A stretch of 64,000 nt of DNA from a phage. The stretch lies in the NCBI GenBank assembly GCA_012813795.1, contig GCA_012813795.1_4087.1; one strand, 5' to 3'. Shown piece by piece: positions 14,568 to 43,821 of this stretch (the first letter of the stretch is position 1; each line of letters opens with the position of its first letter). The notes under the pieces were generated by a model. The model worked only from the letters and a program-made list of their open reading frames with translations. It made no database searches and had not been told where the DNA came from. The translations under genes were made by a program, and so were the position numbers.

Positions 14568-14597
14568 TAGGTTAATTCCTCATTTAATTTAAGATAG

Positions 14598-14631
14598 TGT
14601 TGCTCTGTGATAAACATTATACGAGCAACAC
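14598..14631 (-). terminator. hairpin gtgttgctc-N17-gagcaacac
   Basis: 9-bp stem between two genes. Confidence 0.3.
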
Positions 14632-14653
14632 ACATTCATGTCAACAACTATTT

Positions 14654-15775: not shown

Positions 15776-15811
15776 CAGCCTCTTTTTAATTAATAGTAAA
15801 TCAATAATGCT

Positions 15812-15840
15812 ATTCTATCTAACTTGATTAGTATTGTCAA
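15812..15840 (-). promoter_or_regulatory. sigma70-like promoter TTGACA-N17-TAGAAT
   Basis: Minus strand hexamers with 17-nt spacer, about 40 nt upstream of ATG at 15775. Confidence 0.4.
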
Positions 15841-15866
15841 CACCTAAATGAAAAAAAGGACGCACC

Positions 15867-16685
15867 TTAGCACGTCCCTTTGTTGTTCTTCTCTCTGTAC
15901 CAGTTGAAACCCTTAACTGGTGGGTACTTCTCATCTTTAGGTGGCTCCGGCATATCATACACCGTTGCATTCCTAAATTTTAAAATGTAAACTTCCATAA
16001 GACGTATGATAGCATAGTTTAAACATTTCTGTGCTCTTTCTTTCCAAAAATGTTTATATGGTTCTGGACAGTTTAGATAGTCCAGTTTATACATACCCAT
16101 TGCTGCTTGTACAAATCTCTGTGCTGAAAATTTACGTTTGTCAACCTTACTGGCTCTGTACTGATCAGATGTCCAGCTTTGTACCCCAGGTAAATGACAA
16201 AACAAATCAAACTCTACCATAGAACTAAAATATTCATTATGACCGTGTAGTTCACCATAGAACAATGCCTCATTGACAGTCTCATATAATGAAAAATTCA
16301 TATGTATATGTTCATTATCAAAGATGTTCTTTAGTTCTTTGTACGTCTCTGGTACTGGTGGTTCAGGTAACAACTCACCAAATGTCTCAATGCACCAGAT
16401 TTTCCACAATCCTTTTGTGAATTGTACTTCACGTTCTCTATCACTGTCAATATAAAATGTTTTTTCATTAATGAAAACCTTTCGTGCCATATATGCTTTA
16501 AAGATTGCATCGGGATCGATATCATCACGTTTAATGTCATCCCATCCCTTACCAATCCTTGAAATCTCAAATCTACGCATATACATTCTACAAGCTAAAT
16601 CTTTTGTAGTACTGCGACGATACTTTTCATCCTGAACCAATTTAGTACTTTCATGTAGAGATTTCAACATATTTAAAATTCTCAT
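15867..16685 (-). CDS. hypothetical protein
   Basis: ORF track. Confidence 0.55.
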   Translation of the reverse strand: MRILNMLKSLHESTKLVQDEKYRRSTTKDLACRMYMRRFEISRIGKGWDDIKRDDIDPDAIFKAYMARKVFINEKTFYIDSDREREVQFTKGLWKIWCIETFGELLPEPPVPETYKELKNIFDNEHIHMNFSLYETVNEALFYGELHGHNEYFSSMVEFDLFCHLPGVQSWTSDQYRASKVDKRKFSAQRFVQAAMGMYKLDYLNCPEPYKHFWKERAQKCLNYAIIRLMEVYILKFRNATVYDMPEPPKDEKYPPVKGFNWYREKNNKGTC

Positions 16686-17362
16686 CTTAGCACCAGATAC
16701 TTCCCATCTCTACCAACTATATACTGATTACCACTACGTAGTACTGTATAGTTTTCACCTAATATAGAACTAAGTCTTGATGTATCTAATTTGGTTTCAG
16801 TTTTCAGCATAGATTTGATGTATTCCTCAGATGCAAAACCACTACCAGTGCTATAACATAAATCACCATACACGGTTTGTAGTTTTAGGTTATTACCCTC
16901 TTTGAGTACAGTTATACCAGCATAATCCAAAAACTCGCTTAGTGCATCTGGAGTTCCTAATTCTACACGTTGTTGAACTTCATCAAAGTCTACATCAATT
17001 GGATCATTAACACCATAAAGCTGAATTTTCCATCCAGGATTTGGACAAATGTTTTCAATAGTCTTAATTAGAGTTAGTAATTTTTCTGGAAACTCTGCAT
17101 TACGTTCCATTTCAACAAATACTTGATATCTACCATCTAGGTTAGGTGTTTCAGCAGCTTCAGTATCTACCGCAGTGATTGGTGATTTCTCAATGAAAGA
17201 GGACAAATCATATGCAGCATCAAAATTATTCAATACCTGAAACATAACAACGATATTACCATCTTCAATCTTGGGTGTATATTCATCAACACTGATAATA
17301 GGGTAAATCAGATCTTTAAGTACTTCAGGACGTAATCCCTGTTCATTTAATTGTTTAGACAT
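16682..17362 (-). CDS. hypothetical protein
   Basis: ORF track. Confidence 0.55.
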   Translation of the reverse strand: MSKQLNEQGLRPEVLKDLIYPIISVDEYTPKIEDGNIVVMFQVLNNFDAAYDLSSFIEKSPITAVDTEAAETPNLDGRYQVFVEMERNAEFPEKLLTLIKTIENICPNPGWKIQLYGVNDPIDVDFDEVQQRVELGTPDALSEFLDYAGITVLKEGNNLKLQTVYGDLCYSTGSGFASEEYIKSMLKTETKLDTSRLSSILGENYTVLRSGNQYIVGRDGKYLVLR

Positions 17363-17937
17363 TACATTCCTCCTTTTTGTTCATCAGGTGCACCAAATTC
17401 TGCATCTAATTCTTGAACATCCTGCTCATCTTCCATACTCATATCAGGTGTATTTTGATCTAAGTTCATTGGATTACTATTAAATTCAGATGCCATTAGT
17501 TTGTATTCATCAAAGCTTTCTGGATTAATTAGATTTCGAGGTATTTGAAAACGAACTAGTAGTACTGGTACTCTTTCGGTTCTTGGTACATTCACTGATC
17601 CATGTTGAGTTGCTTGTGTTTTCATATCATTACGACTACGAGGCTTCGCAATTGGTCGTATTTCGTAATCAGCTTTAACTTGAACTTTAGTGCCGTGTTT
17701 TTCTAAAACTGTGAATGCTGTTGGATCTGGAAAGTTTTCTCTATAATATTTGAATGTAACAGTACACCAGTACTTAGTAACATTTGGTCCCTCAACTAGT
17801 TCACCTTCAATTACACCAGTATAGGCATATAAATCATTGTCATCAAAATATTTTTCAACCGCCAGAAGAATGTCTAATATTCCAGAATTATCATATAATT
17901 GCTGGATAGCATTGTCTGTTGTATTCATATCTTCCAT
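17362..17937 (-). CDS. hypothetical acidic-tailed protein (start uncertain; track gives 18066)
   Basis: Track start overlaps upstream gene and a terminator hairpin; internal MEDM start avoids both. Confidence 0.4.
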   Translation of the reverse strand: MEDMNTTDNAIQQLYDNSGILDILLAVEKYFDDNDLYAYTGVIEGELVEGPNVTKYWCTVTFKYYRENFPDPTAFTVLEKHGTKVQVKADYEIRPIAKPRSRNDMKTQATQHGSVNVPRTERVPVLLVRFQIPRNLINPESFDEYKLMASEFNSNPMNLDQNTPDMSMEDEQDVQELDAEFGAPDEQKGGM

Positions 17938-17998
17938 GTTTTTTATTCCCTTAAAAACTTGAACATTTATATTATTTACTACTTTGAAAACAATGAAA

Positions 17999-18015
17999 GG
18001 GGAATCAAGTTCCCC
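17999..18015. terminator. hairpin ggggaa-tcaag-ttcccc flanked by T-runs
   Basis: 6-bp GC stem; T-rich on both strands. Confidence 0.4.
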
Positions 18016-18020
18016 TATTG

Positions 18021-18641
18021 TTATTTTTTCATTAGTTCGTAAATTTTTAGACGAAGTTCGCTCCAATTATTAACATAATCAAAGCCGTTGTTATGCTTGT
18101 ATTCATGGTTATGACACGCACACATCATAACAGCAGGTATATCCAACTCTATAGCCGTTTCTATATTTTTAATATAATCGTCAATCAAAAATTTAACGTC
18201 ATATTGAGCTTTTAATTTCATTAGTGCTGATTTTTTGGATTCATACATTTCAATGATAATGATATCATCAAAAATACCCTCACCAAAGACATTAATGAGA
18301 TTCACATTACGGAGAACTTCTCCGTGTCCGAATGTACCCGATTTAGTCAGTACTACAAATTTATCATATGGGAACTTATCACGTAATTCTTGCATAATTC
18401 CAACCGTGTTATGTTCTACTGGGTCAAGTAGACCAAACTCATAAGAACGATGGTTGAAGTGTTTTAGAATCTCTTGCACTTCAGGTTGAGTAATTCCACC
18501 CAACCACTGACACAAATCATATTTTTCTGGATATGGTGTTTCTGGATGAATATCATAATGTTCTTTAACAAAATTATATAGACCACCAATGTGGTCCAAT
18601 AGCACTTCATCACAATCCCATACTACACAACGTTGTTTCAT
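18021..18641 (-). CDS. HAD-superfamily 5'-nucleotidase-like protein
   Basis: WDCDEVLLD matches HAD motif I (DxDxV); ATG overlaps gp44-like stop as TAATG; track start is TTG at 18659. Confidence 0.5.
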   Translation of the reverse strand: MKQRCVVWDCDEVLLDHIGGLYNFVKEHYDIHPETPYPEKYDLCQWLGGITQPEVQEILKHFNHRSYEFGLLDPVEHNTVGIMQELRDKFPYDKFVVLTKSGTFGHGEVLRNVNLINVFGEGIFDDIIIIEMYESKKSALMKLKAQYDVKFLIDDYIKNIETAIELDIPAVMMCACHNHEYKHNNGFDYVNNWSELRLKIYELMKK

Positions 18642-19594
18642 TACATATTTCCTGAACAAATCAAGTCAATTTCACATAGTAATGCACTCAGGTTCATCTC
18701 ACGATCAGAAACTGTTGATTGTTTGACAACTGCATCACGGATTTTAACCTTGATTTTCATTAGTGTGATTTCATCAGTACTGAACATTTCTGCATTACGA
18801 TACAGATACGAGAAAAACGCATCCATTTCGTCATCAGGGATATTTTGAACAATCTGCTCACGCATCTGACGAATGTTTCCCGCCTTTAATGCATCAACGA
18901 TTGCCGTGCGATACCCAGCAGAATTCTCAATACTGTCTTCTAGTTTTACTAGTTTACCATCAACTACTGAACTCTGCAATACGTTTAATGTTTTGCGGAA
19001 GTCAGGGTACGATGCATTGATGTATTGCTGCACTTGATCAATACTTTCTTCTGATGATAAATCTACACCCTCAGCTAACAGTACGTTGATGATACGGGTC
19101 ATAAACTGTTCCATATCATGCTTCTCGATTGTAATTACTTGCACACGAGAAATAATAGGTTTCAAAATTTTATGTGGCTCATTACTGGTTAGAATAAAAC
19201 GAGCATTCTCGTGATAATCTTCCATGACACGCTTCAGGCTACCTTGTGCTTTGTGGTTCATCTGTTCCATTTCTTCCAGAACAAATACACGATAACGTCC
19301 AAAACATGATAGTTTTGCGGCAGCGTCAATCTTATCACGCACAGCATCAATACCCTCATCTGACATGTTTAGAGTTGTTACATCACTTGGGTCCAGGTGA
19401 CCATTAGCTTCAAGTCCATTTAGTAGTACTTTAATCGCTGAAGTTTTTCCTGTACCAGCGGGACCAAAGAATCCAATATGTGGAATATTGCCAGTACAAA
19501 TCCATTCTTCCATCTTTTTACGAAGAGCATCATTTTTGAAAACGTAATCTTCTAGGGTTTGTGGGCGATATTTTTCAGTCCATAGTGTAGTCAT
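18641..19594 (-). CDS. 44: clamp loader ATPase subunit (T4 gp44-like)
   Basis: EKYRPQTL, Walker A GPAGTGKT, AAA+ clamp-loader layout; GAGGAA SD. Confidence 0.85.
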   Translation of the reverse strand: MTTLWTEKYRPQTLEDYVFKNDALRKKMEEWICTGNIPHIGFFGPAGTGKTSAIKVLLNGLEANGHLDPSDVTTLNMSDEGIDAVRDKIDAAAKLSCFGRYRVFVLEEMEQMNHKAQGSLKRVMEDYHENARFILTSNEPHKILKPIISRVQVITIEKHDMEQFMTRIINVLLAEGVDLSSEESIDQVQQYINASYPDFRKTLNVLQSSVVDGKLVKLEDSIENSAGYRTAIVDALKAGNIRQMREQIVQNIPDDEMDAFFSYLYRNAEMFSTDEITLMKIKVKIRDAVVKQSTVSDREMNLSALLCEIDLICSGNM

Positions 19595-19613
19595 TTATTA
19601 TTCCTCATGTAAA

Positions 19614-19883
19614 TTAGTGAGTCCAATCTGATAGATGGTATAGTAGTGCGGTGAATAGGTCTTCTGTCATCTCCAACTGATTAAAGAGATAGTCAAAAGA
19701 ATTTACTTTATTGTCAATGCCCCTGGCTTTTGCATTCGCAGCAACCACAAGTAAGTGCTTAAATACATCGTGAGATACTTCATAAACATATTTGGTATTC
19801 TTCCTATCTTCAAACAAAAATCTATTATTCTTTGAAACAAGTTGAACATCCGAAAAGCTAAACTTATCATTATCTGTAATCAT
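19614..19883 (-). CDS. hypothetical protein
   Basis: ORF track. Confidence 0.45.
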   Translation of the reverse strand: MITDNDKFSFSDVQLVSKNNRFLFEDRKNTKYVYEVSHDVFKHLLVVAANAKARGIDNKVNSFDYLFNQLEMTEDLFTALLYHLSDWTH

Positions 19884-19937
19884 ATTATATAACCAAATAA
19901 AAAGCCCAGAATATATATTCCGAGCTTACTTTTATAA

Positions 19938-20261
19938 TTAACGTCCAAATGTTTGTACTGAAGTACGTGGGTCTTCATCGGAAACCAAAGATACTGCGGC
20001 TGGGTAATCAACTAAGTTTAATTGAACACCATCAACCTCAATAGTTCTGGACCAGCGACCGTGGTCAATAAGAATCCATTGACCTTCTTTGATATCAGTT
20101 ATATCTTCACCAACTGAATAAACTTTAGCCCAACGACAACGAATACCACGAATTTTACCGTCATCATTTGTTAAAACAATTCCACCAGCAGTTTTTCGTT
20201 CGCCATGTTCTAAATCAGTAACCAGTACTTTTCCCTTACATGCTGTCATAACTTTAGACAT
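19938..20261 (-). CDS. GroES-like co-chaperonin (T4 gp31 functional analogue)
   Basis: KTAGGIVLT matches GroES KSAGGIVLT; overall GroES pattern; CAGGAG SD. Confidence 0.75.
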   Translation of the reverse strand: MSKVMTACKGKVLVTDLEHGERKTAGGIVLTNDDGKIRGIRCRWAKVYSVGEDITDIKEGQWILIDHGRWSRTIEVDGVQLNLVDYPAAVSLVSDEDPRTSVQTFGR

Positions 20262-20266
20262 TTGTA

Positions 20267-20629
20267 TTACTCCTGATCTTTAGTTTTTGCTCTGCGTGGT
20301 GCTTTCTTCTCTTCAGGTGAAACTGAAGGATCAACTGTTTCTTCGTTTTGTACAACGACATGCTCAACTTCAAAGCTTGCATCATCCCAACCATCATCAG
20401 AATAATCAGTGCTTTGTGCCTGATGTTCTGGAATATAGTCAGGAATTTGCATTTCACGTTCTTTCTCTTGAAGTAGTTCTTCACGAGTTTTAATTACAGT
20501 TCCACCAGAACCAATTTTATCACCACGAGCATTTAGTTTAGCATTACCCAATGCAACCTGATGTTGGTTCTGATATTTTAGCATATCCATATCAATGATA
20601 GTGCCACGATAAGTAGTATGTTTTGACAT
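20267..20629 (-). CDS. hypothetical protein
   Basis: AAGGGA SD; extended -10 upstream. Confidence 0.5.
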   Translation of the reverse strand: MSKHTTYRGTIIDMDMLKYQNQHQVALGNAKLNARGDKIGSGGTVIKTREELLQEKEREMQIPDYIPEHQAQSTDYSDDGWDDASFEVEHVVVQNEETVDPSVSPEEKKAPRRAKTKDQE

Positions 20630-20670
20630 ATAAAAATCCCTTTTCTAAGTGCTATAACGTCACAACAACC

Positions 20671-20680
20671 ATTATATCAC
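20671..20680 (-). promoter_or_regulatory. extended -10 element TGaTATAAT
   Basis: Minus strand GTGATATAAT about 42 nt upstream of ATG at 20629; weak -35. Confidence 0.3.
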
Positions 20681-20688
20681 ATGTTTCG

Positions 20689-21231
20689 TTACCATTTCAG
20701 AAATTCGTTCACATCGAGATCATACTTCAATGAGTCAACCATATGCAAACCAATCAGAAACAGACAATATGAGGCTACAGAACTACCACGCCCTAAGCCC
20801 CAGAAGATGTTGTGCTCTTCCATATAATCTACCAACCATATCATACAACGCAATAGCTTTGTCATATTATATTGTTCGTATAAATCAATTTCGTATTCCA
20901 CACGCTGTTTTGCTTCAGGTGTGGAACACTTTTGTAAAAAGAATTCTCTTAGATTGATATTGTCATACATTGGATCATAACGCCATAACTCATGATTACT
21001 ATCATGGTCAATTGTATAATCCAACATACGTTGCTCTAGTCCAAATTTTTTACAGTTATCGTTAAACTTCAAACGCTCTTGTTCATCTATATCTTGTAAT
21101 TGTAAGTACTGAATATCTGAACCACAATTCATAGCATAAACTACAGCATTTAAATTACATTTAACATCACCATTGGGACTTATATATCTGTTTCCTTGAA
21201 CTTTCATTTGTCTTTTTACTATCCTCTTCAT
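20689..21231 (-). CDS. hypothetical protein with DnaE-like GxGRGS segment
   Basis: WGLGRGSSVASYCLFLIGLHMVD resembles Pol III alpha GPGRGSAAGSLVAY region; start uncertain. Confidence 0.4.
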   Translation of the reverse strand: MKRIVKRQMKVQGNRYISPNGDVKCNLNAVVYAMNCGSDIQYLQLQDIDEQERLKFNDNCKKFGLEQRMLDYTIDHDSNHELWRYDPMYDNINLREFFLQKCSTPEAKQRVEYEIDLYEQYNMTKLLRCMIWLVDYMEEHNIFWGLGRGSSVASYCLFLIGLHMVDSLKYDLDVNEFLKW

Positions 21232-21475
21232 CTGATAGATAAGAATTCATATCAAAAATACATGGATCAGCTTCCTCGTATGTATCTTTCTCTTTTCTAC
21301 CTTGTCGTAAAGTCATTTCTTCATAGCACTGATTCAGTACTATCTGCATGTTACCAATGATAGAATCACTCATACCAGCGGCACGAGCGGAACTAATACG
21401 TAAACTTTGATCATTAATCTTTTGTTGGAGTTCTTTATCACTCATACCAGAAGGGTCATAAAATGGATTAAACAT
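21167..21475 (-). CDS. hypothetical protein
   Basis: ORF track; overlaps next gene. Confidence 0.4.
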   Translation of the reverse strand: MFNPFYDPSGMSDKELQQKINDQSLRISSARAAGMSDSIIGNMQIVLNQCYEEMTLRQGRKEKDTYEEADPCIFDMNSYLSDEEDSKKTNESSRKQIYKSQW

Positions 21476-21487
21476 ATTTTTCTCCTA

Positions 21488-23875
21488 TTATATTATGTCA
21501 TTCTGTAAAGCAATTCTAAATGTATCATGTACATAACGTTCATGGTCCTGTGCAAAGTATCCAAATTCAACAGCAGTTACTTCGAATTCAGTACTAACCA
21601 TAGAACTATGCTCATTGTTTTGTAACAACATTTGGAAAAATGCTTCACCCTTACCAGGCAAACAGTATGCTACTGGAATGATAGGCATGAATTTCTTCTC
21701 AATACCATCTTCGATATATGGATGGTTCATGAAGCGTGGAACTGTGTCAATCATCTCATCACTTATGCCTGGTATAGCATCCACATATAGACCACGATTG
21801 ACTAAATCAGTTGGGTCTTTAACCAAGTTTGTTGTATCTTCACCAACAGCCTTATAGATGTTTTGGCGTAAACCAAACAACTCAGCAAGTAAACCATTAT
21901 CTACATTAGTGTAAATTCGAGGGTTGGTGGATACTACAACTTGTGTTCCTTCTGGATGAAGTTCTCTAAACACCAAATCATACAGAAGATTCCCTTTGTT
22001 GTCAAGTGCTGACATGATTTTATAATTACCAATAACCATCTTGAATTTACCATTGGGAATAGTAGCCCCTGATGGATCTATAATATTCTCACGGAGAACT
22101 TTTTTCAAATCACTTAAGTTGGTGTAATTATAGTTCTGATTTACAAAGTTTTCTTTCAATAGAATTCTAGGAACTTTCTGTAACCCATATCTATCATCAG
22201 ATTGACGATGGAATCCAAAATTAGCAAATGTTTGAGTACTGATGCATTTAAACCAATCACGCTCAAACTGTACCGATGGTACAATATGTGAACTCAAATG
22301 ATTTTGTCCCAACCCACGAACGATTTTTAATTTGAAATCACCAATAACACTACTACCCTCGGTGTCATACACTTCAACCTTGAAATTCAATTTTATATCA
22401 TCATTGGCACTAAAATCAGTACTTAATGCATATGCAGTTCCTACAAGATAACCGTCAGGGGTAAGGTCCAATCCATATTTAGTTATATCATCACCACCTG
22501 CCAATACACAAGATACTTGATTCTTACTATTAGTGAGTATTCGTGGGTATACCGTATGTCCGAAATATTCACCAACATGGATGGTTCCCAAGTCTGGATC
22601 GGTGATTATCTGTATAGATGAACCTTCTGCGGCGTTTTCCAAAAATCGGAACATACGTTTCTCACCAATAATACCACTACCTAAAGATACGTCATAATAA
22701 CCTAAATCATTCCAATCTGAACTTTTGAATAATGGTTTTATCATACCTTCATCATATTCACCACTAATAACATATGGATAAACAACGTTATCCCTTAACT
22801 GGTATAAATGGTTAGGTTTGGGTTTTTCATCAGTTGCAGCAATAGTAGATACATCATTTGGACATACCCACATTTGATATGCTTTGAAACGTTGGTCGAT
22901 TGCAAAACGTTCAGCGAGTGTAATGTATGTTTTAAGAATATCTACAATTTCAATCTTAAAGTAAACATCCGTTGGTTCGGATTCATGTAAGAATGTTTGT
23001 AAGAATTGCCCATTAGGGTTAAAGGAAAGACCACTTTTTGTTATCTTCCCAGTGTCATCAACTATGTTAACTTTAACTTCTTTATTAATTCCATCAACTG
23101 GAAATGCTAAATCATCAGGGCGTAGGTAAGCTGCTTTACCTGTAACGTGTCTTGTTGGTAAATCCTGTTCAGTTATATCCAGTAGGCGATACGCTGGAAA
23201 GAACACACGAGGACTAGTATCGGTCGCACTATCTACATTTGGCTGGTATGGACGTTTACGACCGAAGCCTTGAATGAACAAAGTACTGTCAGAACCATAT
23301 TCAATATCACCAATGCAATATAATCGATCGTCATCTGTGATAGTTAATCCAGGGGTTACCCATATTTCTTTACTATCAAAAGTTACTGTTGCTTTGTTTG
23401 CACGCAACAAACCAGATGGTGAAATGTTCCCAAAATGCATAACATTAACTGCCTGTAAATTGAAAACAACACTCTCAACGTTGTTAAATGTACCATCACG
23501 CTTACAATGCAACTTTAGATAATAAACATCTTCACTGATTATAGTACTTGGAAGATAAAAATTATTCTTTTGTATTCTACACTTATGTCTTCCATTTAAA
23601 AACTGGTTTCCAGTGGTTCCGTCCGATAGTGGGACTAAATTTCGTGGGTCATTACCAACAAATAATGAATAATGGTTTTCAGCGTTAAAAACATTACCAA
23701 CATTATCTAAACATTGTATAGTGAAAATCATCTCTAAGTATTCGTTTTCACTTAGTGTATAGCTATCACCTGTAGTTCCTTCTTTATTGATACTTAATCT
23801 AATAAGAATGTCAGATCCTTCTTGAATATATTGAGTATCAGCCTTTAAATCCCAATACGGGGTAAAAGATGCCAT
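21488..23875 (-). CDS. large hypothetical protein, probably late/structural
   Basis: 795 aa, beta-rich composition; TATAAATA late-type box and GGAGAAA SD upstream. Confidence 0.6.
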   Translation of the reverse strand: MASFTPYWDLKADTQYIQEGSDILIRLSINKEGTTGDSYTLSENEYLEMIFTIQCLDNVGNVFNAENHYSLFVGNDPRNLVPLSDGTTGNQFLNGRHKCRIQKNNFYLPSTIISEDVYYLKLHCKRDGTFNNVESVVFNLQAVNVMHFGNISPSGLLRANKATVTFDSKEIWVTPGLTITDDDRLYCIGDIEYGSDSTLFIQGFGRKRPYQPNVDSATDTSPRVFFPAYRLLDITEQDLPTRHVTGKAAYLRPDDLAFPVDGINKEVKVNIVDDTGKITKSGLSFNPNGQFLQTFLHESEPTDVYFKIEIVDILKTYITLAERFAIDQRFKAYQMWVCPNDVSTIAATDEKPKPNHLYQLRDNVVYPYVISGEYDEGMIKPLFKSSDWNDLGYYDVSLGSGIIGEKRMFRFLENAAEGSSIQIITDPDLGTIHVGEYFGHTVYPRILTNSKNQVSCVLAGGDDITKYGLDLTPDGYLVGTAYALSTDFSANDDIKLNFKVEVYDTEGSSVIGDFKLKIVRGLGQNHLSSHIVPSVQFERDWFKCISTQTFANFGFHRQSDDRYGLQKVPRILLKENFVNQNYNYTNLSDLKKVLRENIIDPSGATIPNGKFKMVIGNYKIMSALDNKGNLLYDLVFRELHPEGTQVVVSTNPRIYTNVDNGLLAELFGLRQNIYKAVGEDTTNLVKDPTDLVNRGLYVDAIPGISDEMIDTVPRFMNHPYIEDGIEKKFMPIIPVAYCLPGKGEAFFQMLLQNNEHSSMVSTEFEVTAVEFGYFAQDHERYVHDTFRIALQNDII

Positions 23876-23908
23876 TTTATTTCTCCATAGCTACTAATAT
23901 CTATAGAT

Positions 23909-23916
23909 TATTTATA
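23909..23916 (-). promoter_or_regulatory. T4 late-promoter-like TATAAATA box
   Basis: Minus strand TATAAATA about 35 nt upstream of ATG at 23875. Confidence 0.35.
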
Positions 23917-23927
23917 TAAAGGAGGAA

Positions 23928-23948
23928 GGAAGACCCATAGGGTCTTCC
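23928..23948 (-). terminator. hairpin ggaagaccc-ata-gggtcttcc plus U-rich tail
   Basis: 9-bp perfect stem downstream of the topoisomerase medium subunit gene. Confidence 0.5.
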
Positions 23949-23956
23949 ATTATATA

Positions 23957-25369
23957 TTAATCTTCAGACTTAGGTGTAAAGTCCATTTTTAGTAATTCTT
24001 GTAGTTCTTCTTTATAGATATTCCAGATTTTATCTTGGTTATTAAGTAAATCATTATAACTATCCATTAGATCTAGATTATCTTGAATGTCTTTCAGTAC
24101 TACATCGTAATTATCTTTCGTCCAGCGATAAGATGGGAAGTTTACAATACTCTGGATATTCTCAGATGTAGCTTCGATTTCAGTATTAAGCGAAGTTACA
24201 AATTCAACCATTTCAGCACGGTTTGCAAAGCCTTTTACTTTACCAATCATGTCATTATCAAAACACTCTTTGATGAGAATCTTATAACGAACTTCGGCTG
24301 CACAGTCTTCCAGTTTCTTCTCATATCGCTTCACATAGTATTTGAAACGGAAATTTACGAAATCTTTAATCAGGTCAAGTGTACTGTCATATACACGAAC
24401 TTTACCATTTTCACCAAGAACAGTTAACAATTGAGTCATTTTCTTATTCAATCCAAAATACTCAATTACATCAGCTTCGGTCCATTTTTGAGAAATTCCG
24501 CGTGGTAGTTTGATCGTGATATCAATAACATCAGTACTATCATTATCGTAATCACGAATATCACCATCATCACTCATCTTGATTAGTTTTTCGATAAACT
24601 TTTCAATACTATAATTGGGTGGAAGACCTGTCACTTTAACAGTACTTGCGTCAATTACCTGTGCTTTACCATAAAATTCATATTTGTTTTCGTCTAGTTT
24701 AGTTACTATATCACTAGCACCAACCGATGCATAATATGGTGTCATTTCTTTAAGGGGTTTCCCTTCAATTGCACGAATACAGTTCTTTATTACATCCTCA
24801 ATCTTATGTGGAAGAATTGTACTCTTATACCCTACTGACATACTATCATTACCAAACAATGCTAATGGGATGATAGGTAGGAAGTGTACTGGTTCCATTG
24901 TAGTACCATCATAGTTCTCTTTCATTGGAATTATATCCATATCACGTAGAACTAATGCTTCAGTCGTTTTTGTCTTTTTGACGTAGGTATAACGAGCAGA
25001 TGCCGGAGTACTGTTAACTTGTGTCCCGAAACCACCACGCTTACCAATCAGTGGGTAGTTGTTAGCAACTGGACTAGCTAGGTTTTGTAATGTTCCTGAT
25101 GCAGATGTGTCACCATGAACGTAAATCCCATCACTGATCATACGACCTGCACATGAAACAGTTTTAATCTCCCCACTGATTTTGGATAATGTGAAGATTG
25201 CTTTACGTTGAGAACTCTTGAGTCCGTCAATCCCTGGGATAGCACGGTCAAGTGTGTACATTGAGTATTCTAATGATGTAGTATTGACATAATCTGAACT
25301 TTTATAATCAAGTAAAGTTAGAGTTAATTCATCAACATTTGTATTAGTGTTTTTCTTACTTTTAGCCAT
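23957..25369 (-). CDS. 52: DNA topoisomerase II medium subunit (T4 gp52-like, GyrA-type)
   Basis: YSMYTLDRAIPGIDGLKSSQRKAIF matches the GyrA-family N-terminal motif. Confidence 0.8.
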   Translation of the reverse strand: MAKSKKNTNTNVDELTLTLLDYKSSDYVNTTSLEYSMYTLDRAIPGIDGLKSSQRKAIFTLSKISGEIKTVSCAGRMISDGIYVHGDTSASGTLQNLASPVANNYPLIGKRGGFGTQVNSTPASARYTYVKKTKTTEALVLRDMDIIPMKENYDGTTMEPVHFLPIIPLALFGNDSMSVGYKSTILPHKIEDVIKNCIRAIEGKPLKEMTPYYASVGASDIVTKLDENKYEFYGKAQVIDASTVKVTGLPPNYSIEKFIEKLIKMSDDGDIRDYDNDSTDVIDITIKLPRGISQKWTEADVIEYFGLNKKMTQLLTVLGENGKVRVYDSTLDLIKDFVNFRFKYYVKRYEKKLEDCAAEVRYKILIKECFDNDMIGKVKGFANRAEMVEFVTSLNTEIEATSENIQSIVNFPSYRWTKDNYDVVLKDIQDNLDLMDSYNDLLNNQDKIWNIYKEELQELLKMDFTPKSED

Positions 25370-25417
25370 TCCATTGTCTCTTTGTTAAGCGGGGAACACC
25401 ATGTCCCCCTTATTACA

Positions 25418-27382
25418 TTATTCCATCCAGTTTTTACGATCATCAGCACGTTTCTTGTTGAAAATCAAATCTAATGTTTCACCAAGACGACCGTCATCAG
25501 TAATTGCTACTGCAACACTATTCGTAAATGCATCGCGGAAGTTACTTTTTTCGAGTGTTCCTAAACCTTTCGCACGAGTTGCTTTCCACCCTTTCCAATC
25601 TTCAGGAATATATTCATGGACGTTATGACCATAAAAATACTTAGATTCCTTACCTTTCTCCAAGATAATAAATGGAGTTTTGAATACGTATACAAACGGA
25701 TTATCAGGATCTTGGAATAATTCGGGCCAGAATTTGTACAAGAAGTTACAAACTAGTGCACCAATGTTCTTACCATCCTCATCTTCGTCCGCACAGATAT
25801 ATAGCTTACCGTAATTCAAATCAGCACGGTCAGCTTTAACTCCAGGGACCAAGTTGATGCTTGCCATTATATCATGCAATGCCATAGAATCCATTAATTC
25901 TTTGGTTTTCTCATTCCCACTAACGTTCATAATCTTACCACGCAATGGGAGGATACCATGAATACTAGGAATACGAGCACTTGCCATGTTGGAAATAGCA
26001 GAGTCACCTTCCGCAACCAATAGAATACATTGTGAACGGTCAGTTCCAGTACTATCAAGTAGTTTTGCAACTTTACCTTTCAAAAGTTTCTTGGCAAGGC
26101 GACGGTCTTCTTCTGCGTCTTTCTTATTAGTACGGGCAGCACAACGTTCAAAAATCTCATCAACCCATTCTTTATTTTTCTTGACCAATTCATCAAACCA
26201 GTCAGTACTCATAGCTTGCTGAATAGGACGAATTACATTTTCATTAGTCAACTTAGATTTAATCTGTGAGTTGAATGATGGTGCTTTCATTGTAGTTACA
26301 TTGTAAATCAACAAACCTTCTTCAATATCAGAACGGTTTGGTTTCATCTTACGCTTCTTCGCTTCTTTCTCTAATGCAGTTCCTACCCCTAAAGAGAAGA
26401 ATTTCTTGAAGGTATCTAGATGTGTACCACCATCAAATGCTGGAGCATTATTCACAAGACCATGCATATGGAAGTTTGTGTTCATACCAGATACAGCATT
26501 AGGTACAATATAAAACGTACTATTGAAATTGAATGATTCATCTTTAACATTCAATGACATTAGTTTTGAAGCATTAAAGAGTGCCTTTTCTGTGCTTCCT
26601 TTAATTGCAATACGTTTACCATTCAAGAAGATTTTGTATGTTGGGTTCGCTGCTGCCATTTCTTTTAGAATACTATAAAGTAATTCAGTTGGTAGCTTGC
26701 GATTAGGAAATACTTCTTTACTTAGGGTAAAGCGAATAGTTGTACCAGTTTTATCGGATTGTACTTTTCGAATAGTTGGTTCATGTACATGAAGTTCAGG
26801 GAACATAATTGTACCTTCTTCAAACTTCTGTGTATATTTGTACATACCATCATAACCGTCATTACTGGATTGCGTTTTATATGGACGTCCGGTTCGGTGA
26901 ATTTCAAGTTCTGCTTTAGAGCTAACAATCATAGCCACAGAACCACCTAGACCGTTTTGACCGATTGTTTCATCACGCTTAGAATCATCAAAGTTACGAC
27001 CAGTTTTAGTTTCAGTCATTACCATCGTACAGAGGTTTTTCTCATACTCTGGGACATAATCAATCGGAATACCACGACCATTATCACTGATTTCGAAGGA
27101 AAGGTCTTCTTCATTGAAATCAACTTTCAGTACTGGTTCTTTCGTACCAGCTTTTTTGAATTCATCAAGACTGTTATCAATAATTTCACGAGTTGCAGTA
27201 AGAATTGCAGGAACCCATTCCATATTTTTTACAGCATAATCATTTTCACCAAAAATCAGTACTTGACTTTCGTGAATAGAACGAGAACCAAGATACATCT
27301 CAGTACGTAGACGAGCATGTTGATAATCGTTTAGACGTTGAACGTCATGTTCTTGTAGAACAGCACTTTCTTTCTTAGCCAT
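25418..27382 (-). CDS. 39: DNA topoisomerase II large subunit (T4 gp39/gp60-like, GyrB-type)
   Basis: GHKL ATPase motifs IIDNSLDE and DNGRGIP, TOPRIM LLVAEGDSA; AAGGA SD. Confidence 0.85.
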   Translation of the reverse strand: MAKKESAVLQEHDVQRLNDYQHARLRTEMYLGSRSIHESQVLIFGENDYAVKNMEWVPAILTATREIIDNSLDEFKKAGTKEPVLKVDFNEEDLSFEISDNGRGIPIDYVPEYEKNLCTMVMTETKTGRNFDDSKRDETIGQNGLGGSVAMIVSSKAELEIHRTGRPYKTQSSNDGYDGMYKYTQKFEEGTIMFPELHVHEPTIRKVQSDKTGTTIRFTLSKEVFPNRKLPTELLYSILKEMAAANPTYKIFLNGKRIAIKGSTEKALFNASKLMSLNVKDESFNFNSTFYIVPNAVSGMNTNFHMHGLVNNAPAFDGGTHLDTFKKFFSLGVGTALEKEAKKRKMKPNRSDIEEGLLIYNVTTMKAPSFNSQIKSKLTNENVIRPIQQAMSTDWFDELVKKNKEWVDEIFERCAARTNKKDAEEDRRLAKKLLKGKVAKLLDSTGTDRSQCILLVAEGDSAISNMASARIPSIHGILPLRGKIMNVSGNEKTKELMDSMALHDIMASINLVPGVKADRADLNYGKLYICADEDEDGKNIGALVCNFLYKFWPELFQDPDNPFVYVFKTPFIILEKGKESKYFYGHNVHEYIPEDWKGWKATRAKGLGTLEKSNFRDAFTNSVAVAITDDGRLGETLDLIFNKKRADDRKNWME

Positions 27383-27482
27383 TTTAATTCCTTTTAGTGT
27401 CTCTGTGTCTTGTGATATTGTATCACGAAAAGTTTATTTGTCTCAAAAAGAATTCGGAGAGCATAAAGCCCCCCGAATATAA

Positions 27483-27869
27483 TTACAAAAGAAGTAATCC
27501 AAAAATGATAACATAATGGGTAAAATGATGAATCATTTGATCATACCCTAACCACCACCAAAATTCAGCATCTTGTGGTGTGTGTTGTTTAGAGCCAACA
27601 ACTTTAACTCGGTCCATTACAAAATGAACAACTGCATCAATTGCAAGAAGCATGAAAAACACCTTCCACGTTGTTCCAATATAACAAGCAAAAATTGCAA
27701 TAATTATTGCAGTTCCTAATACATGAACAGCAACGTGTGCTGCCAATGGTAGAAACCACCCATGCTCTTTAAATTTACCAAGCATGTATTTGCCTTGGAA
27801 TATATAATCACACAGAAAATGTTTTATTTGAAATAATGCCAATAGCCCAAAAACTAAAAGTATACTCAT
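27483..27869 (-). CDS. small integral membrane protein (DUF3307-like)
   Basis: Several TM segments; HFLCDYIFQ N-terminal motif. Confidence 0.45.
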   Translation of the reverse strand: MSILLVFGLLALFQIKHFLCDYIFQGKYMLGKFKEHGWFLPLAAHVAVHVLGTAIIIAIFACYIGTTWKVFFMLLAIDAVVHFVMDRVKVVGSKQHTPQDAEFWWWLGYDQMIHHFTHYVIIFGLLLL

Positions 27870-27878
27870 ATAGTATCC

Positions 27879-28733
27879 TTATTTAACAAGGAGTAATTGT
27901 AACTCAGCACTTGGGCTTGTCTCATCATCACTCCAATATTTGTGAACTTTTTCTGGTGTTGCCTTTGCTAAAACTTCACCACCACCAACAATGTACACTT
28001 GATGTGATCCAATTAGTCTAGTCCAAAATTTAATTGCATCATCAGTGTGTAAACTATCACTAAGTATAGCGTAGCCGTGCTTTAGCATATCCATAAAGAT
28101 AGTGTAAATGATACCTTTTGTGCCTGTTTTAGATGCAGTTGCTGCGATTTCGAAAACATTCTGAACACCTAGTACTGCATCATTAGAAGTATAACCACTA
28201 ACAATAGCTAGTTGTTTACCGCTCTTATCATATGCGATAAAACCAGTACCATTCTTATTCTGATAAACGTCATAATCATTGTGCTTAGCAAAGATTACCA
28301 TGTTATGCTTACCTGTCATTTCTGCTGTCTTATCTACAAACTCATCACGGTCTTGGCCCTGAAAACTATCAAAGCGTTGTGGCATTTCTTCCAACTTCTC
28401 AGTATTTTCATAGAAGTGATGTTCTTTATTTTGACAACACTGTTCACACTCACAATCATCTGCGTGTACATCCATTGTATCATCAATTTCAGGATTGTCC
28501 TGTGCAATTTCTGCATCTTGAATGATATCCACCCAACCTTTCATTGAAGATTCAGTAGTTTTCTTTTTAACGTGTTGGGGCAACTTCGCCCCCTTTTTAA
28601 GATTTCCAGCTTTTTCATCAGCATGATTCCATTCCTTAGCAGTATCTGTTGATACACCATGTGATTTTGCAATCTCTGGGTCATGTGCCATAGCAGCAAA
28701 TAGTCTTGCTTGACTCTTAGATTTAGATGGCAT
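27879..28733 (-). CDS. hypothetical protein with central Cys cluster
   Basis: DDCECEQCCQNKEHH cluster; basic N-terminus. Confidence 0.5.
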   Translation of the reverse strand: MPSKSKSQARLFAAMAHDPEIAKSHGVSTDTAKEWNHADEKAGNLKKGAKLPQHVKKKTTESSMKGWVDIIQDAEIAQDNPEIDDTMDVHADDCECEQCCQNKEHHFYENTEKLEEMPQRFDSFQGQDRDEFVDKTAEMTGKHNMVIFAKHNDYDVYQNKNGTGFIAYDKSGKQLAIVSGYTSNDAVLGVQNVFEIAATASKTGTKGIIYTIFMDMLKHGYAILSDSLHTDDAIKFWTRLIGSHQVYIVGGGEVLAKATPEKVHKYWSDDETSPSAELQLLLVK

Positions 28734-29658
28734 TTTTAATATCTCCTATTAAGTTCTCTAATATAGTTCGGTGATTTTGTTTATAATTTATTCGTATCAA
28801 ATTGATATTGTTAATATTACAAAAATTAGTTTTTATCAAATCACGTTTTTTAATATTAATCAATTCGTCAACACCACCCCAATGTTCCTTTTCGACGTAA
28901 TGCTGTTCACCATCATATTCTATACATATATTATAATCTGGTAAATAAAAATCAAAAGGTAATGGGTTTATATTCTTACAATCATCAAACTTATATTCTG
29001 TTATGTATTTAATTTTATTAATAGTGAGTATGTGACTAATATCTTGAACAGCTTTGGATATTTTATTATTACATAAGGAACAACCTTTTCCAGCTTGATG
29101 GTCAGAAAGTCTTTGGAAATAATAACCATGATTTGGGCAACCAATTTCAACAATATCATTCATATATTCATAATCTAATTTAGAATAATCATACTTATTA
29201 TTATGTATAAAATTACATTTATTAATAACTTTTTCTTTAGATTTTTTTCTTTTATTACCAATTACCACATTAGCACATTTTTTACATCCCTTCCCATCCA
29301 AATGAGAATTAACGGTTTGATAAAACATACCATGATTTTCACATGGACAAAATATTTTGATGGTTGTGGAATGTGATATTTTTTCGCAATATTCATATAT
29401 ATACTTATTGTTATGTATAACATTTGAACGTTCTATAAATTTATCATATGTTAATTTCGCATTACCTGAACACTCTGGACAACCGCCACCATTTCTATGA
29501 TAATAAGCATCTTGTACAAATTCACCATGAAAAGGACATATTATAATTATATTTGATTTTATTTTTATCAAATCAGTTTGAGTGTAATCATAAAAGAAAT
29601 TATGTTTTAAATGACATGAAATTATATATTCTTTCAATGTTATTTTAGGTCGCCCCAT
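28723..29658 (-). CDS. putative endonuclease: three zinc-ribbon repeats plus Vsr/DUF559-like PD-(D/E)xK domain
   Basis: Three copies of NNKY...CP.HG.F...H..GKGC..C; C-terminal FDFYLPDYNICIEYDGEQHY. Confidence 0.5.
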   Translation of the reverse strand: MGRPKITLKEYIISCHLKHNFFYDYTQTDLIKIKSNIIIICPFHGEFVQDAYYHRNGGGCPECSGNAKLTYDKFIERSNVIHNNKYIYEYCEKISHSTTIKIFCPCENHGMFYQTVNSHLDGKGCKKCANVVIGNKRKKSKEKVINKCNFIHNNKYDYSKLDYEYMNDIVEIGCPNHGYYFQRLSDHQAGKGCSLCNNKISKAVQDISHILTINKIKYITEYKFDDCKNINPLPFDFYLPDYNICIEYDGEQHYVEKEHWGGVDELINIKKRDLIKTNFCNINNINLIRINYKQNHRTILENLIGDIKNAI

Positions 29659-29661
29659 GAA

Positions 29662-32906
<3,245 letters not shown>

Positions 32907-32954
32907 GTAATAAAAGCTCCAAATAGTTTGTAATAGGTGTTGGTTACAGTAAAG

Positions 32955-32983
32955 ATTGTATAACAATAATTGATTTCTGTCAA
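32955..32983 (-). promoter_or_regulatory. sigma70-like promoter TTGACA-N17-TACAAT upstream of IF3 homologue
   Basis: Minus strand -35 at 32978-32983, -10 at 32955-32960. Confidence 0.45.
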
Positions 32984-33174
32984 GCTCCATTATTGTATTT
33001 TTTCAATGCATCACAAATAGCTTGTACTTGAATAAGATAAGTTTTTGCAAACTCAGCTTGTGTACGAACACGTGGGTTTGGTGCATTTTTAATCATAATG
33101 TCAAGGTCATATACAACTTTGTCGAATACACCTTTGTCATCAATGATACGATCATAGAATGATTTGTCTTCCAT
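32980..33174 (-). CDS. small hypothetical protein
   Basis: GGAG SD 8 nt upstream of ATG. Confidence 0.45.
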   Translation of the reverse strand: MEDKSFYDRIIDDKGVFDKVVYDLDIMIKNAPNPRVRTQAEFAKTYLIQVQAICDALKKYNNGA

Positions 33175-33198
33175 GTCAAGAACTCCATGTAATAAAAA

Positions 33199-33765
33199 TT
33201 ATAGTTTAACGTATGTTACTTCGGTTGCATCAGCCAAAGATGGCACATCAACGTAAATGTTTTCATATTCCACAAAATCAATGGTGGTTTTTACGAAAGC
33301 ATTATCAATACGTTGGATAGTTTTTTGAACTGAAATTTGTTCTTGTTCTAATGCATTAGTGCCGTTACCAGTTAATGCTGCATTTAGCATATCCTGAATA
33401 ACTTTTGCAGCGGCAGCAGTTTTTTGATCTTCAGTTTTGAGTTCTTTTTGTTCTTCAGCACTCAATGTGCTCAGGAACGGCTCATAACTAATATACCCAA
33501 CATGAATAGATGCATCAGAAGGGATAGTTTTTGCTGTACCTTCAGTGTTAAATTCTACTGTGTAATAGGTAGGGACTGAATGTTCAGATAGTAGGCGTGT
33601 TACATATTGCATACGCAAATAGGCAATACTTTTCGCTTTTGTTTCTGCATCAGATGGGGCCAGGGTTGCATCTGATGAATCATAATCATCATATTGATTA
33701 TACATTTTGTTATCTAGATTTGTACCAGACACACTGATTTTAAATACTTTTAATAAATTGTTCAC
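33199..33765 (-). CDS. hypothetical protein
   Basis: ORF track. Confidence 0.55.
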   Translation of the reverse strand: MNNLLKVFKISVSGTNLDNKMYNQYDDYDSSDATLAPSDAETKAKSIAYLRMQYVTRLLSEHSVPTYYTVEFNTEGTAKTIPSDASIHVGYISYEPFLSTLSAEEQKELKTEDQKTAAAAKVIQDMLNAALTGNGTNALEQEQISVQKTIQRIDNAFVKTTIDFVEYENIYVDVPSLADATEVTYVKL

Positions 33766-33809
33766 TGTATATTTTCTCCATTATACAAAGCACTTTTGAT
33801 TATTTATTG

Positions 33810-39392
<5,583 letters not shown>

Positions 39393-39418
39393 TCACCATA
39401 AAACACACAGTACCAGAT

Positions 39419-39592
39419 TATTCTTCAATTTTAGGTGTAAACATTATCACATGTGCTTGCACGAGATGTGTACCATCATTTAAGATCATACCATTATCAC
39501 GTACTGCAATCACAGAACCAGTAATTTTGTATCCACCTACAACAACAAACTCATAGACGATACCAGGCTCAATTGAAAAAATATCATTCATA
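39419..39592 (-). CDS. small ORF (57 aa) not in ORF track
   Basis: ATG at 39590-39592 (minus) to stop at 39419-39421 fills a gap; weak SD. Confidence 0.3.
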
Positions 39593-39610
39593 AAATATAC
39601 CCATGTAAAA

Positions 39611-39630
39611 GGGGATTCAGTTGAATCCCC
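39611..39630 (-). terminator. hairpin ggggattca-gt-tgaatcccc plus T-run
   Basis: Near-perfect 9-bp palindrome downstream of nrdB stop, followed by TTTT on minus strand. Confidence 0.5.
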
Positions 39631-39642
39631 TAGGTTAGATTA

Positions 39643-40767
39643 TTATAGTTTGAATGGACTAAAAGTATCTTCATTCACATCGTTCACAATACCACCAATG
39701 ATATATGAACTGATTTCAGTTTCTTGTGGTGCGACTTGAACATCTGCACTTGTAATCCAGTGTTCAGTCCAAGGTAGTGGATTGTTCTTTGATACACTGT
39801 ACGGACATTTAACACCAACACCGGACATACGTTTAGAACCAATCCAACGAACATATTGTTTTAGGATTTCTGCATTCAAACCAATGATAGAACCATCTTT
39901 GAATAGATAGTCTGCCCACTTTTCTTCTTGTACAATGGCATCAATGAACATTGCTTGTACTGTATCATAGCACTCTTCTGCAATTTTTGCAAAGTCTGGA
40001 TCTTCTTTCTTAAGAAGACGTAGAATCATTTGGGTTGCGGCAAGATGTAGGTTTTCATCACGACAGATTAGACGGATAATCTTTGCGTTACCTTCCATCA
40101 ATTTATTTTCAGCAAAAGCCCAGGAACAAGCAAAAGAAGCGTAAAAACGAACGCCTTCAAGAATGTTGATACTATTCAAGCACAGCCACATTTTCTTTTT
40201 AAGTTCGTACATATCAACGACAATAGTTTTACCATTGACATTATGTGTTCCTTCACCCAGTACTTTGTACCATGTACCTAGCTCATCCAGTTCATCATAG
40301 TACTTAGACACATCTGCCGCACAATCGGTGATTTCTGGAATATCAAGCATAGTATTAAAAATTTCTGATGGATTTGCATAGATATTACGAATGATGTGCG
40401 TATATGACTTACTGTGGATTGCACCTTCGAAAAATGCCCAAGTTTCAATGAAGTTTTCTAATTCTGGTAATGATGCATAGGGGAGAAGCATCAAGTTTGG
40501 ACCACGACCCTGAACCGAATCAAGTAAGATTTGACGCTTTAGATTCGAATCAAAGATATGCTTTTCAGATGTTGATAAACCTGCAAAATCAATCTTATCT
40601 TTGGTTACATCAACTTCACCTGGTGTCCAGAAGAAACTTTTTTGTTGCTCAGTTAGTTTCTCTAGTGCTGAATATTTTACACTTTCAAATCGTTGAATGT
40701 CAACACTTTCATCAAAAAACATATTTTTTTCTAAGTGTGATTTTTTGTTAATTTTAAAGACTGACAT
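39643..40767 (-). CDS. nrdB: ribonucleotide reductase small subunit NrdB
   Basis: Ferritin-like diiron fold pattern typical of class I RNR beta; adjacent to nrdA; AAGGA SD. Confidence 0.85.
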   Translation of the reverse strand: MSVFKINKKSHLEKNMFFDESVDIQRFESVKYSALEKLTEQQKSFFWTPGEVDVTKDKIDFAGLSTSEKHIFDSNLKRQILLDSVQGRGPNLMLLPYASLPELENFIETWAFFEGAIHSKSYTHIIRNIYANPSEIFNTMLDIPEITDCAADVSKYYDELDELGTWYKVLGEGTHNVNGKTIVVDMYELKKKMWLCLNSINILEGVRFYASFACSWAFAENKLMEGNAKIIRLICRDENLHLAATQMILRLLKKEDPDFAKIAEECYDTVQAMFIDAIVQEEKWADYLFKDGSIIGLNAEILKQYVRWIGSKRMSGVGVKCPYSVSKNNPLPWTEHWITSADVQVAPQETEISSYIIGGIVNDVNEDTFSPFKL

Positions 40768-40788
40768 TTATATTCCTTTTTTGTAGAA

Positions 40789-40808
40789 AATCCCACCGAA
40801 GTGGGATT
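40789..40808 (-). other. intercistronic hairpin aatcccac-cgaa-gtgggatt between nrdA and nrdB
   Basis: 8-bp stem, 4-nt loop. Confidence 0.35.
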
Positions 40809-40813
40809 AATTA

Positions 40814-43132: not shown

Positions 43133-43196
43133 TTATCATCCTTGTTACTCATTATTTCAGTTCAATATTTAGTACTGCAAAATTATGGGGAAGAAA

Positions 43197-43793: not shown

Positions 43794-43821
43794 ACTAATG
43801 TTCTCCTATAGTATTATAGGA

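Follow-up and report, generated by a model that had tools for sequence, protein, structure and literature searches.

Homing endonucleases of the EDxHD family, whose catalytic domain resembles that of Vsr, were predicted in 2009 (PMC2677866) and characterised two years later, in 2011, through I-Bth0305I, an enzyme with NUMOD/helix-turn-helix binding regions (PMC3239194). A different way of building such proteins came to light more recently. In 2023, repeated CapR/DUF723 zinc fingers were described on T5orf172 homing endonuclease genes (HEGs) of phages (PMC10448857), and in 2025 a report on group II introns ("Presence of group II introns in phage genomes", Nucleic Acids Research; PMC12350094) described proteins in which three to five ~60-amino-acid (aa) domains related to CapR, DUF4379 and DUF723 are joined to a ~100-aa EDxHD/Vsr-like domain. 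The latter architecture was found in introns of group I as well as of group II and has thousands of uncharacterised homologues in UniProt (PMC12350094). Here we describe a gene in a 64,000-nt stretch of phage DNA (contig GCA_012813795.1_4087.1 of GenBank assembly GCA_012813795.1, termed the window below) at positions 28723..29658 on the minus strand. It is probably a free-standing, i.e., intergenic, HEG that combines an array of zinc-finger modules with a C-terminal EDxHD/Vsr-like nuclease. This assessment concerns what the gene is or recently was; its present-day activity is less certain, because a valine (V204) stands at a position of the putative active site that is discussed further on.

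The window derives from an Asteriusvirus jumbo phage and is ~98% identical to Escherichia phage A4 over 64 kb, while the 7.6 kb around the gene shows 98.9% identity to A4 and ~80% to PBECO4, 121Q and many others. The gene was singled out by a first-pass annotation made from the letters and open reading frames (ORFs), which read it as a nuclease with tripled zinc-ribbon repeats and a Vsr/DUF559-like core. The coordinates given there are exact: the six-frame ORF list holds a complete frame with an ATG start, encoding 311 aa plus stop, in the same orientation as all other large genes of the window. The protein (P0001) is already present in NCBI under the name hypothetical protein, and no other copies of the gene were found within the window by tblastn.

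The N-terminal 200 residues of the protein are made up of three CHCC zinc modules, all encoded on the minus strand. Module 1 (29461..29646) covers residues 5-66 with ligands C41, H44, C60 and C63, module 2 (29263..29460) covers residues 67-132 with ligands C104, H109, C125 and C128, and module 3 (29062..29244) covers residues 139-199 with ligands C174, H177, C193 and C196, the basic linker NKRKKSKEK lying directly before it. Each module follows the pattern C-x2-H ... C-x2-C with an extra His, and 12/12 ligand positions, as well as the extra His, are invariant across 50 homologues. The three tandem repeats noticed at first pass are real, since pairwise Smith-Waterman scores of the modules (90, 95 and 126) far exceed the shuffle means of 25-28 (z = 12.6, 14.7 and 17.0) and were equalled in 0/1000 shuffles. 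Their size, however, had been misjudged: modules are 62-66 aa long and recur with a period of 63-70 aa, not ~50 aa. Similarly, the proposed NNKY start holds for modules 2 and 3 (HNNKY.Y) but not for module 1, which reads HNFFYDY. At the DNA level the only trace of the repeats is a single 45-nt pair at 73%, and Tandem Repeats Finder (TRF) reported no relevant tandem array. The repeats are thus nearly erased in the DNA and are old repeats of the protein, not the result of a recent duplication.

Profile searches place these modules among known zinc domains. Pfam matches on the protein itself are below threshold (DUF723, E = 0.0035, residues 29-64; DUF4379, "probable treble clef", E = 0.058, residues 97-130), and of 48 family modules, 24 match DUF723, 14 DUF4379 and 7 CapR at E <= 0.01. 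The precomputed Pfam matches of the homologues are PF05265 and PF14311, with PF21817 in some. The number and type of the modules therefore agree with the three to five domains of the group described in PMC12350094. In a single-module model of module 2 (predicted local distance difference test, pLDDT, 89.5) a helix and a small sheet are seen, with C-P-x-H at the hairpin turn and C-x-x-C opening a helix, so that the predicted layout looks treble-clef-like rather than like a classical zinc ribbon; no structural neighbours of the single module were found in the PDB. The first-pass term "zinc ribbon" was loose in its wording; the matches to DUF723, DUF4379 and CapR speak for zinc modules. No helix-turn-helix or NUMOD family was matched by the protein in Pfam. 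As for their function, zinc-dependent DNA binding by CapR-type fingers was experimentally shown for the satellite repressor CapR (PMC8096241) and for the CasPR anti-CRISPRs (CasPR preprint).

The remaining 112 aa (residues 200-311; 28726..29061, minus strand) form the C-terminal Vsr/EDxHD-like nuclease domain, which matches the ~100-aa EDxHD/Vsr-related domain of the same published group (PMC12350094). The Vsr/DUF559-type signature D...(I/L)xExDG..H, recognised at first pass, is present as FDFYLPDYNICIEYDGEQHY at residues 235-254. D236, E247, G250, H253 and K276 are invariant in homologues (D236 in 30/30 and in 50/50), D273 is conserved in at least 90% of them, and D249 also counts among the conserved residues. 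An AlphaFold model built on 50 homologues reached a mean pLDDT of 92.4 with a predicted template-modelling score of 0.49, a value in line with domains that sit on flexible linkers. The best match of a fold search with this model was Vsr, as were the best interpretable matches of Foldseek, so that the model supports the Vsr-like alpha/beta nuclease fold of the EDxHD family.

Searches by sequence alone gave weak results, so that both the fold search and a profile comparison with I-Bth0305I were required. Among family members, 22/30 match DUF5889, 22/30 DUF2726 and 11/30 DUF559 (best 4e-5). The DUF559 (PF04480) score of 14.3 bits lies under the Pfam gathering threshold of 20.6, so the protein is not assigned to that family. 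Further matches are to PvuRts1I-like_N (sub-threshold in Pfam, E = 0.067), to the Vsr-like domain of AbaSI (domain profile against PDB sequences, E = 0.012) and to the PADLOC model mREase_II, a methyl-directed type II restriction enzyme (residues 203-309, E = 2.8e-5). The sequence of I-Bth0305I was read from the record of phage 0305phi8-36 and compared with the profile of the C-terminal domain by hhalign, which aligned the profile with residues 167-253 at E = 9e-5 and thereby bears out the nuclease assignment of the first-pass annotation. It was established that the active-site residues E170, D196, N208, H213 and D222 of I-Bth0305I correspond to E25, D51, H64, H69 and D97 of Vsr (PMC3239194). 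In our alignment the pairs (I-Bth0305I first) are D196-D236, E206-E247, N208-D249, D222-D273 and K225-K276. The metal-binding Asp (D196 / Vsr D51) is thus D236, which hhalign pairs with both proteins, and the second Asp (D222 / Vsr D97), on the following helix, is D273. H253 lies 17 residues past the first Asp, as H213 does in I-Bth0305I; the hhalign alignment is gapped there and leaves the two His unpaired, so that H253 is the putative general-base His (H213 / Vsr H69) on grounds of spacing.

I-Bth0305I, the EDxHD prototype (PDB 3R3P), nevertheless differs from the window protein in several respects: it is encoded by a recA group I intron of a Bacillus phage, it carries NUMOD/helix-turn-helix regions instead of zinc modules, identity to the window protein is ~17-18%, and its E170 is replaced here by V204. 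The HEGs of PMC12350094 share the architecture, a likeness drawn from their published description. They are intron-encoded, whereas the window gene is free-standing at a gene junction, contains three modules and a 112-aa nuclease domain, and has Val at the conserved Glu position. The exact combination of modules and nuclease was already described in 2025, so the window gene adds one member to it and its novelty is low. A full-length homologue from Staphylococcus Kayvirus SAP1 (QNH71135; 28% identity over 267 aa, E = 4e-21) also has three Cys-rich modules, the first of which passes the Pfam CapR threshold, followed by a Y-D-F-Y...IEY-x-GEQH nuclease domain. Its modules are of CxxC/CxC type rather than C-x2-H...C-x2-C, it keeps the Glu in the motif S-R-G-E, and it is located between two terminase large-subunit coding sequences (CDSs) and named by its depositor "group I intron-associated VSR homing endonuclease", while the window gene lies between genes. 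The HEGs of Vibrio phage ICP1 come close in another way, as they too are free-standing, intergenic and built of a repeated zinc-finger array with a nuclease (PMC10448857), but their catalytic domain is T5orf172 (GIY-YIG-like) and not Vsr-like. F-CphI of cyanophage S-PM2, at first considered as a Vsr-like free-standing HEG, was dropped as a comparator, since it carries an Endo VII motif (PMC6083498).

Given the fold, one may ask whether the protein is a true very-short-patch repair endonuclease, nicking at T:G mismatches that arise from deaminated 5-methylcytosine produced by the phage's own methylase. Vsr is indeed the best fold match, several homologues bear the automatic JGI name "very-short-patch-repair endonuclease", and a C5 cytosine methylase is encoded in the window at 273..2171. 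Yet hhalign finds no significant similarity to E. coli Vsr (E = 0.24, 42 columns), and the zinc ligand C66 and intercalating F67/W68 of Vsr would fall on E251/Q252/H253 here if the register is extended by eye. The zinc motif of Vsr is missing in I-Bth0305I too (PMC3239194). E. coli Vsr and DUF559/NGO0050-type proteins are single-domain, have a repair or unknown role, are not mobile and lack the zinc-module array, while the window protein has 200 extra N-terminal residues. Moreover, the methylase is still encoded in A4, where the core of the present gene is deleted, and most relatives do without the gene altogether. The protein is therefore not placed among the Vsr mismatch-repair endonucleases proper, and a repair role is extremely improbable.

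A second alternative is a weapon or defence nuclease, rather than a self-propagating element, directed against competing phages, satellites or modified DNA in the manner of the modification-dependent Vsr-like restriction enzymes AbaSI and PvuRts1I. The PADLOC match over residues 203-309 speaks for it, and so does the fact that marker exclusion between phages is a further effect of known homing endonucleases, as established for the seg and mob genes of T4. However, the likeness goes no further than the catalytic fold of Vsr type that these proteins have in common; a domain for reading modifications, SRA-like or other, is absent, the remainder of the protein being a zinc-module array of HEG type, and the insertion at one junction in three lineages, together with the allelic series presented below, is what a homing element would produce. 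A weapon role is thus very improbable as the explanation of the gene, even though weapon and homing roles are mutually compatible.

The free-standing character of the gene is evident from its insertion site. Alignment with the empty site of PBECO4 defines an insert of 928 nt (28734..29661, minus strand; boundary ambiguous by 1 nt), which separates the TAA stop of one virion gene, upstream, from the ATG of another, downstream. The upstream gene (29662..31251, minus strand) encodes a 529-aa virion structural protein (A4_77, "structural protein") and the downstream gene (27879..28733, minus strand) a 284-aa virion structural protein (A4_79, "structural protein"). In PBECO4 these two genes abut, with stop and start overlapping as TAATG (…GGGAGTTTATAATGCCA…) and no ORF between them. 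The PBECO4 junction reads GGGAGTTTATAA/TGCCA, where the slash marks the point of insertion, and the empty junction of PBECO4/121Q includes GGGAGTTTATAATGCCAAGTAAGAGTAAAAG; the window reads …GGGGAGTTTATAA / TTCATGGGG…gene…ATATTAAAA / ATGCCATCT…. With a GC content of 25.3% against a window mean of 34.8% (standard deviation 2.4), the insert is the lowest 928-nt segment in the window. The endonuclease gene starts 3 nt past the stop codon of the upstream gene. At its other end it reaches 11 nt into the downstream gene, and these first 11 nt of that gene provide the final codons of the endonuclease ORF together with its stop. The N-terminus of the downstream virion protein, MPSKSK..AQA..FAA, is conserved in all lineages.

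The signals for translation appear to be rearranged by the insert. The upstream virion gene contains, at its 3' end, a GGGGAG Shine-Dalgarno-like element (29669..29674, minus strand), which stands before the endonuclease ATG in the window and, where the site is empty, before the downstream virion gene. A second putative element, AGGAGA (28742..28747, minus strand), sits inside the endonuclease ORF at its 3' end, 8 nt ahead of the downstream ATG (28733), and AGGAG occurs at the equivalent place in the two orthologous contigs introduced below, before the downstream ATGCCAAG. The insert would thus be harmless by its build, as it takes over the former ribosome-binding site of the downstream gene and provides, at its own 3' end, an AGGAG in exchange.

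Evidence for mobility comes from the comparison of alleles at this junction, which also answers the question raised at first pass as to whether the gene is present at the locus in related phages. PBECO4 and 28 other listed relatives have an empty site; in these 28 the match to a 7.6-kb query spans 6.15-6.21 kb, too little to accommodate the endonuclease gene. In A4, a degraded allele is found within a region 98-99% identical to the window: the remnant A4_78 is a 67-aa in-frame fusion of the first 32 and last 35 residues of the window protein, produced by an in-frame deletion of 732 nt between two exact 14-nt direct repeats TTTTTATCAAATCA. Both copies are retained in the window, a promoter-distal one at 28830..28843 and a promoter-proximal one at 29562..29575, spaced by 732 nt and bounding the segment lost in A4. 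Positions 1..64000 of the window are collinear with A4 231554-294817 at ~98% identity, in two blocks, and this deletion is the only large indel. The same junction is occupied in two distant metagenomic contigs of jumbo phages, a 332-kb ENA contig (L003, protein P0051) and a 6-kb Logan contig (L004, protein P0041), whose endonucleases are 50% identical to the window protein and also have three modules. Around both orthologues the gene order is IF3, ClpS, KTSC, a 527-aa protein, the endonuclease, the virion protein and topoisomerase, the endonuclease genes beginning at the upstream stop or <=3 nt from it. Identity of the flanks to the window is 28-30% for the upstream protein and 46-66% for the downstream one. 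The first-pass annotation would have been abandoned had the protein shown no nuclease match and the gene been conserved in all relatives; the profile match to I-Bth0305I and the empty sites point the other way on both counts. The searches for nuclease and zinc domains and the comparison of the locus all support the first-pass reading. Filled, degraded and empty alleles, along with orthologues in diverged genomes, make up the footprint expected of an HEG that undergoes invasion, decay and loss.

Several observations weigh against the homing endonuclease reading. First, no model of Pfam or NCBIfam is matched by the protein at its curated threshold, NCBIfam giving nothing relevant, and a sequence-only search of the PDB by phmmer found no match, the domain profile retrieving only AbaSI at the E value given above. 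Second, the residue aligned with I-Bth0305I E170 / Vsr E25 is V204, in the motif S-K-A-V, while the family consensus is S-K-G-E, with Glu in 112/120 of the best homologues; both same-locus orthologues also have Val (S-[KR]-A-V). The first Glu of the composite EDxHD motif, which on our own reading of PMC3239194 would be E170, is therefore missing, and V204 could weaken or alter catalysis. Third, the occupancy of one site in three lineages could reflect one old insertion followed by many losses instead of repeated homing. Fourth, the promoter/terminator scan of the window gave 26 promoter-like sites against 25.1 expected, so the promoter-like site just upstream of the gene is not above chance, and the sole TATAAT just upstream of the gene is also present in the empty site. 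Finally, no reported target site, activity, cleavage or homing was found in the literature for any member of the zinc-module subfamily.

The valine also lends itself to another explanation, in which the protein is a domesticated or decaying derivative that has kept DNA binding and makes no double-strand breaks, acting for instance as a nickase or as a site-specific repressor, e.g., of the flanking virion genes. This would parallel the origin of CapR and the CasPRs from DNA-binding domains of homing endonucleases, and these domesticated CapR-type binders serve as a precedent (PMC8096241; CasPR preprint). The conserved Glu is changed to Val in the window protein and in both same-locus orthologues, which are moreover the only three-module members among the best 120 matches, and the loss of its core in A4 shows that the gene is dispensable. 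On the other hand, D236, E247, D249, H253, D273 and K276 are kept across the 50%-identical orthologues, which speaks for selection acting on the nuclease site; for E170 of I-Bth0305I a role was only suggested ("might also participate", PMC3239194), and 8/120 family members lack the Glu. A useful regulator would also not be expected to be missing from nearly all relatives. Domestication is therefore unlikely. Equally doubtful is its more specific form, that the three-module proteins of this junction (window, P0041 and P0051) constitute a distinct sublineage with altered chemistry, i.e., a nickase or a non-cutting binder part-way to domestication, in which the protein may have been kept because the 3' end of the gene now provides the ribosome-binding site of the downstream virion gene.

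The family to which the protein belongs is large. A large protein search returned 4919 homologues at E <= 1e-5, typically of 420-530 aa with 5-6 modules, and among the best 120 all members besides the three just named have 4-6 modules. No homologue more than 60% identical was found in a collection of 50,697 phage records. PHROG matches are phrog_559 ("HNH endonuclease"; E = 3.7e-59, full length), phrog_9084 ("homing endonuclease"; E = 1.7e-30 on residues 191-300) and phrog_7140 ("intron encoded nuclease"). The label HNH endonuclease, carried by PHROG 559 and by several GenBank records, was considered and rejected: no HNH Pfam family is matched at E <= 10 and the fold is Vsr-like, so the label is unsupported and appears to be a propagated annotation error. 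Many phage homologues are labelled "HNH endonuclease", "type 2 secretion system protein" or "exonuclease ABC C subunit", names that fit ill with a Vsr-like fold, and across the family the mistaken names "HNH endonuclease", "Vsr" or "hypothetical" are frequent. The best-scoring homologue in a cultured phage, that of Klebsiella phage KP13-7 (41% identity), was not counted as an orthologue, because its neighbours differ in size and the locus, judged from these sizes, does not look the same. Related jumbo phages hold multiple copies of the family, at up to 9 places in Escherichia virus TH47 and 8 in KP13-7, and homologues are also present in the Lak megaphages of Prevotella.

If the gene is a homing endonuclease gene, a plausible course of events can be proposed from its parts. 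The three zinc modules would most likely read and bind an extended DNA sequence, and the nuclease domain would most likely cut nearby by means of a Mg2+-dependent active site of Vsr type, as the fold and the conserved residues suggest, with D236 and D273 binding the metal, H253 serving as general base and E247, D249 and K276 assisting. The target is most likely the uninterrupted virion-gene junction in phages devoid of the gene, probably together with the 5' end of the downstream gene, the conservation of which makes it a likely part of the homing site. In a mixed infection the break would then be repaired from the genome that carries the endonuclease, and the gene would be copied into the junction. 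Such copying by donor-templated repair is established for other phage HEGs.

Apart from correcting the "HNH" and "Vsr repair" labels, this describes an otherwise ordinary selfish gene. Its value lies in the locus, which is a natural test set: an intact gene here, a near-isogenic knockout in A4, and empty sites in cultured relatives such as PBECO4 and 121Q, all of them phages that infect E. coli. This allelic series would allow cleavage, homing and co-conversion to be measured and the first target site of the zinc-module subfamily to be mapped. The Glu-to-Val change in the sublineage at this site is a further point of value. The series could also reveal how DNA is read by CapR-type fingers in an array, a question of some interest with regard to programmable nucleases.

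Other features of the window touch on mobility as well. The C5 cytosine methylase mentioned above (minus strand, 632 aa) has an intein inside it, with Hint_2 at residues 77-133 and LAGLIDADG_3 at residues 294-360, both within the DNA_methylase matches; this is presumably the intein to which the first-pass annotation referred. The corresponding A4 CDS (A4_120) is of equal length, hence the intein appears to be shared and not polymorphic, and the remaining mobile-element content is alike in the window phage and A4 over the 64 kb. The suggestion of active selfish-element traffic is only weakly supported: a LAGLIDADG intein is present, but the window and A4 show no large difference besides the decay of the endonuclease gene.

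A second presence/absence polymorphism lies 1 kb from the endonuclease, where a gene for a DUF3307 membrane protein (27483..27869, minus strand, 128 aa; Pfam E = 6.6e-9) is located between the downstream virion gene and the gene of the topoisomerase II large subunit. The window, A4 and L004 have this gene, which PBECO4 and the other relatives with 71% coverage lack. At 4488-5222 L004 also holds a second, 36%-identical zinc-module/Vsr-like paralogue, immediately ahead of the coding sequence for the topoisomerase II large subunit; gene calling puts both into one ORF (4155-6173), and the paralogue could be a second free-standing HEG or a fusion made by that call. In L003, the gene downstream of the orthologous endonuclease (5920-8550) encodes 876 aa. 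Its product has the 56 N-terminal and the 220 C-terminal residues of the 284-aa virion protein of the window, separated by an inserted stretch that shows 27% similarity to the 529-aa virion protein encoded upstream. Lastly, just past the position that corresponds to the end of the window (64000), the large terminase subunit of A4 is represented by two CDSs (A4_29 and A4_30; 230273-232584) that lie 275 nt apart and could denote an intron or a split gene, the window ending inside the second piece.

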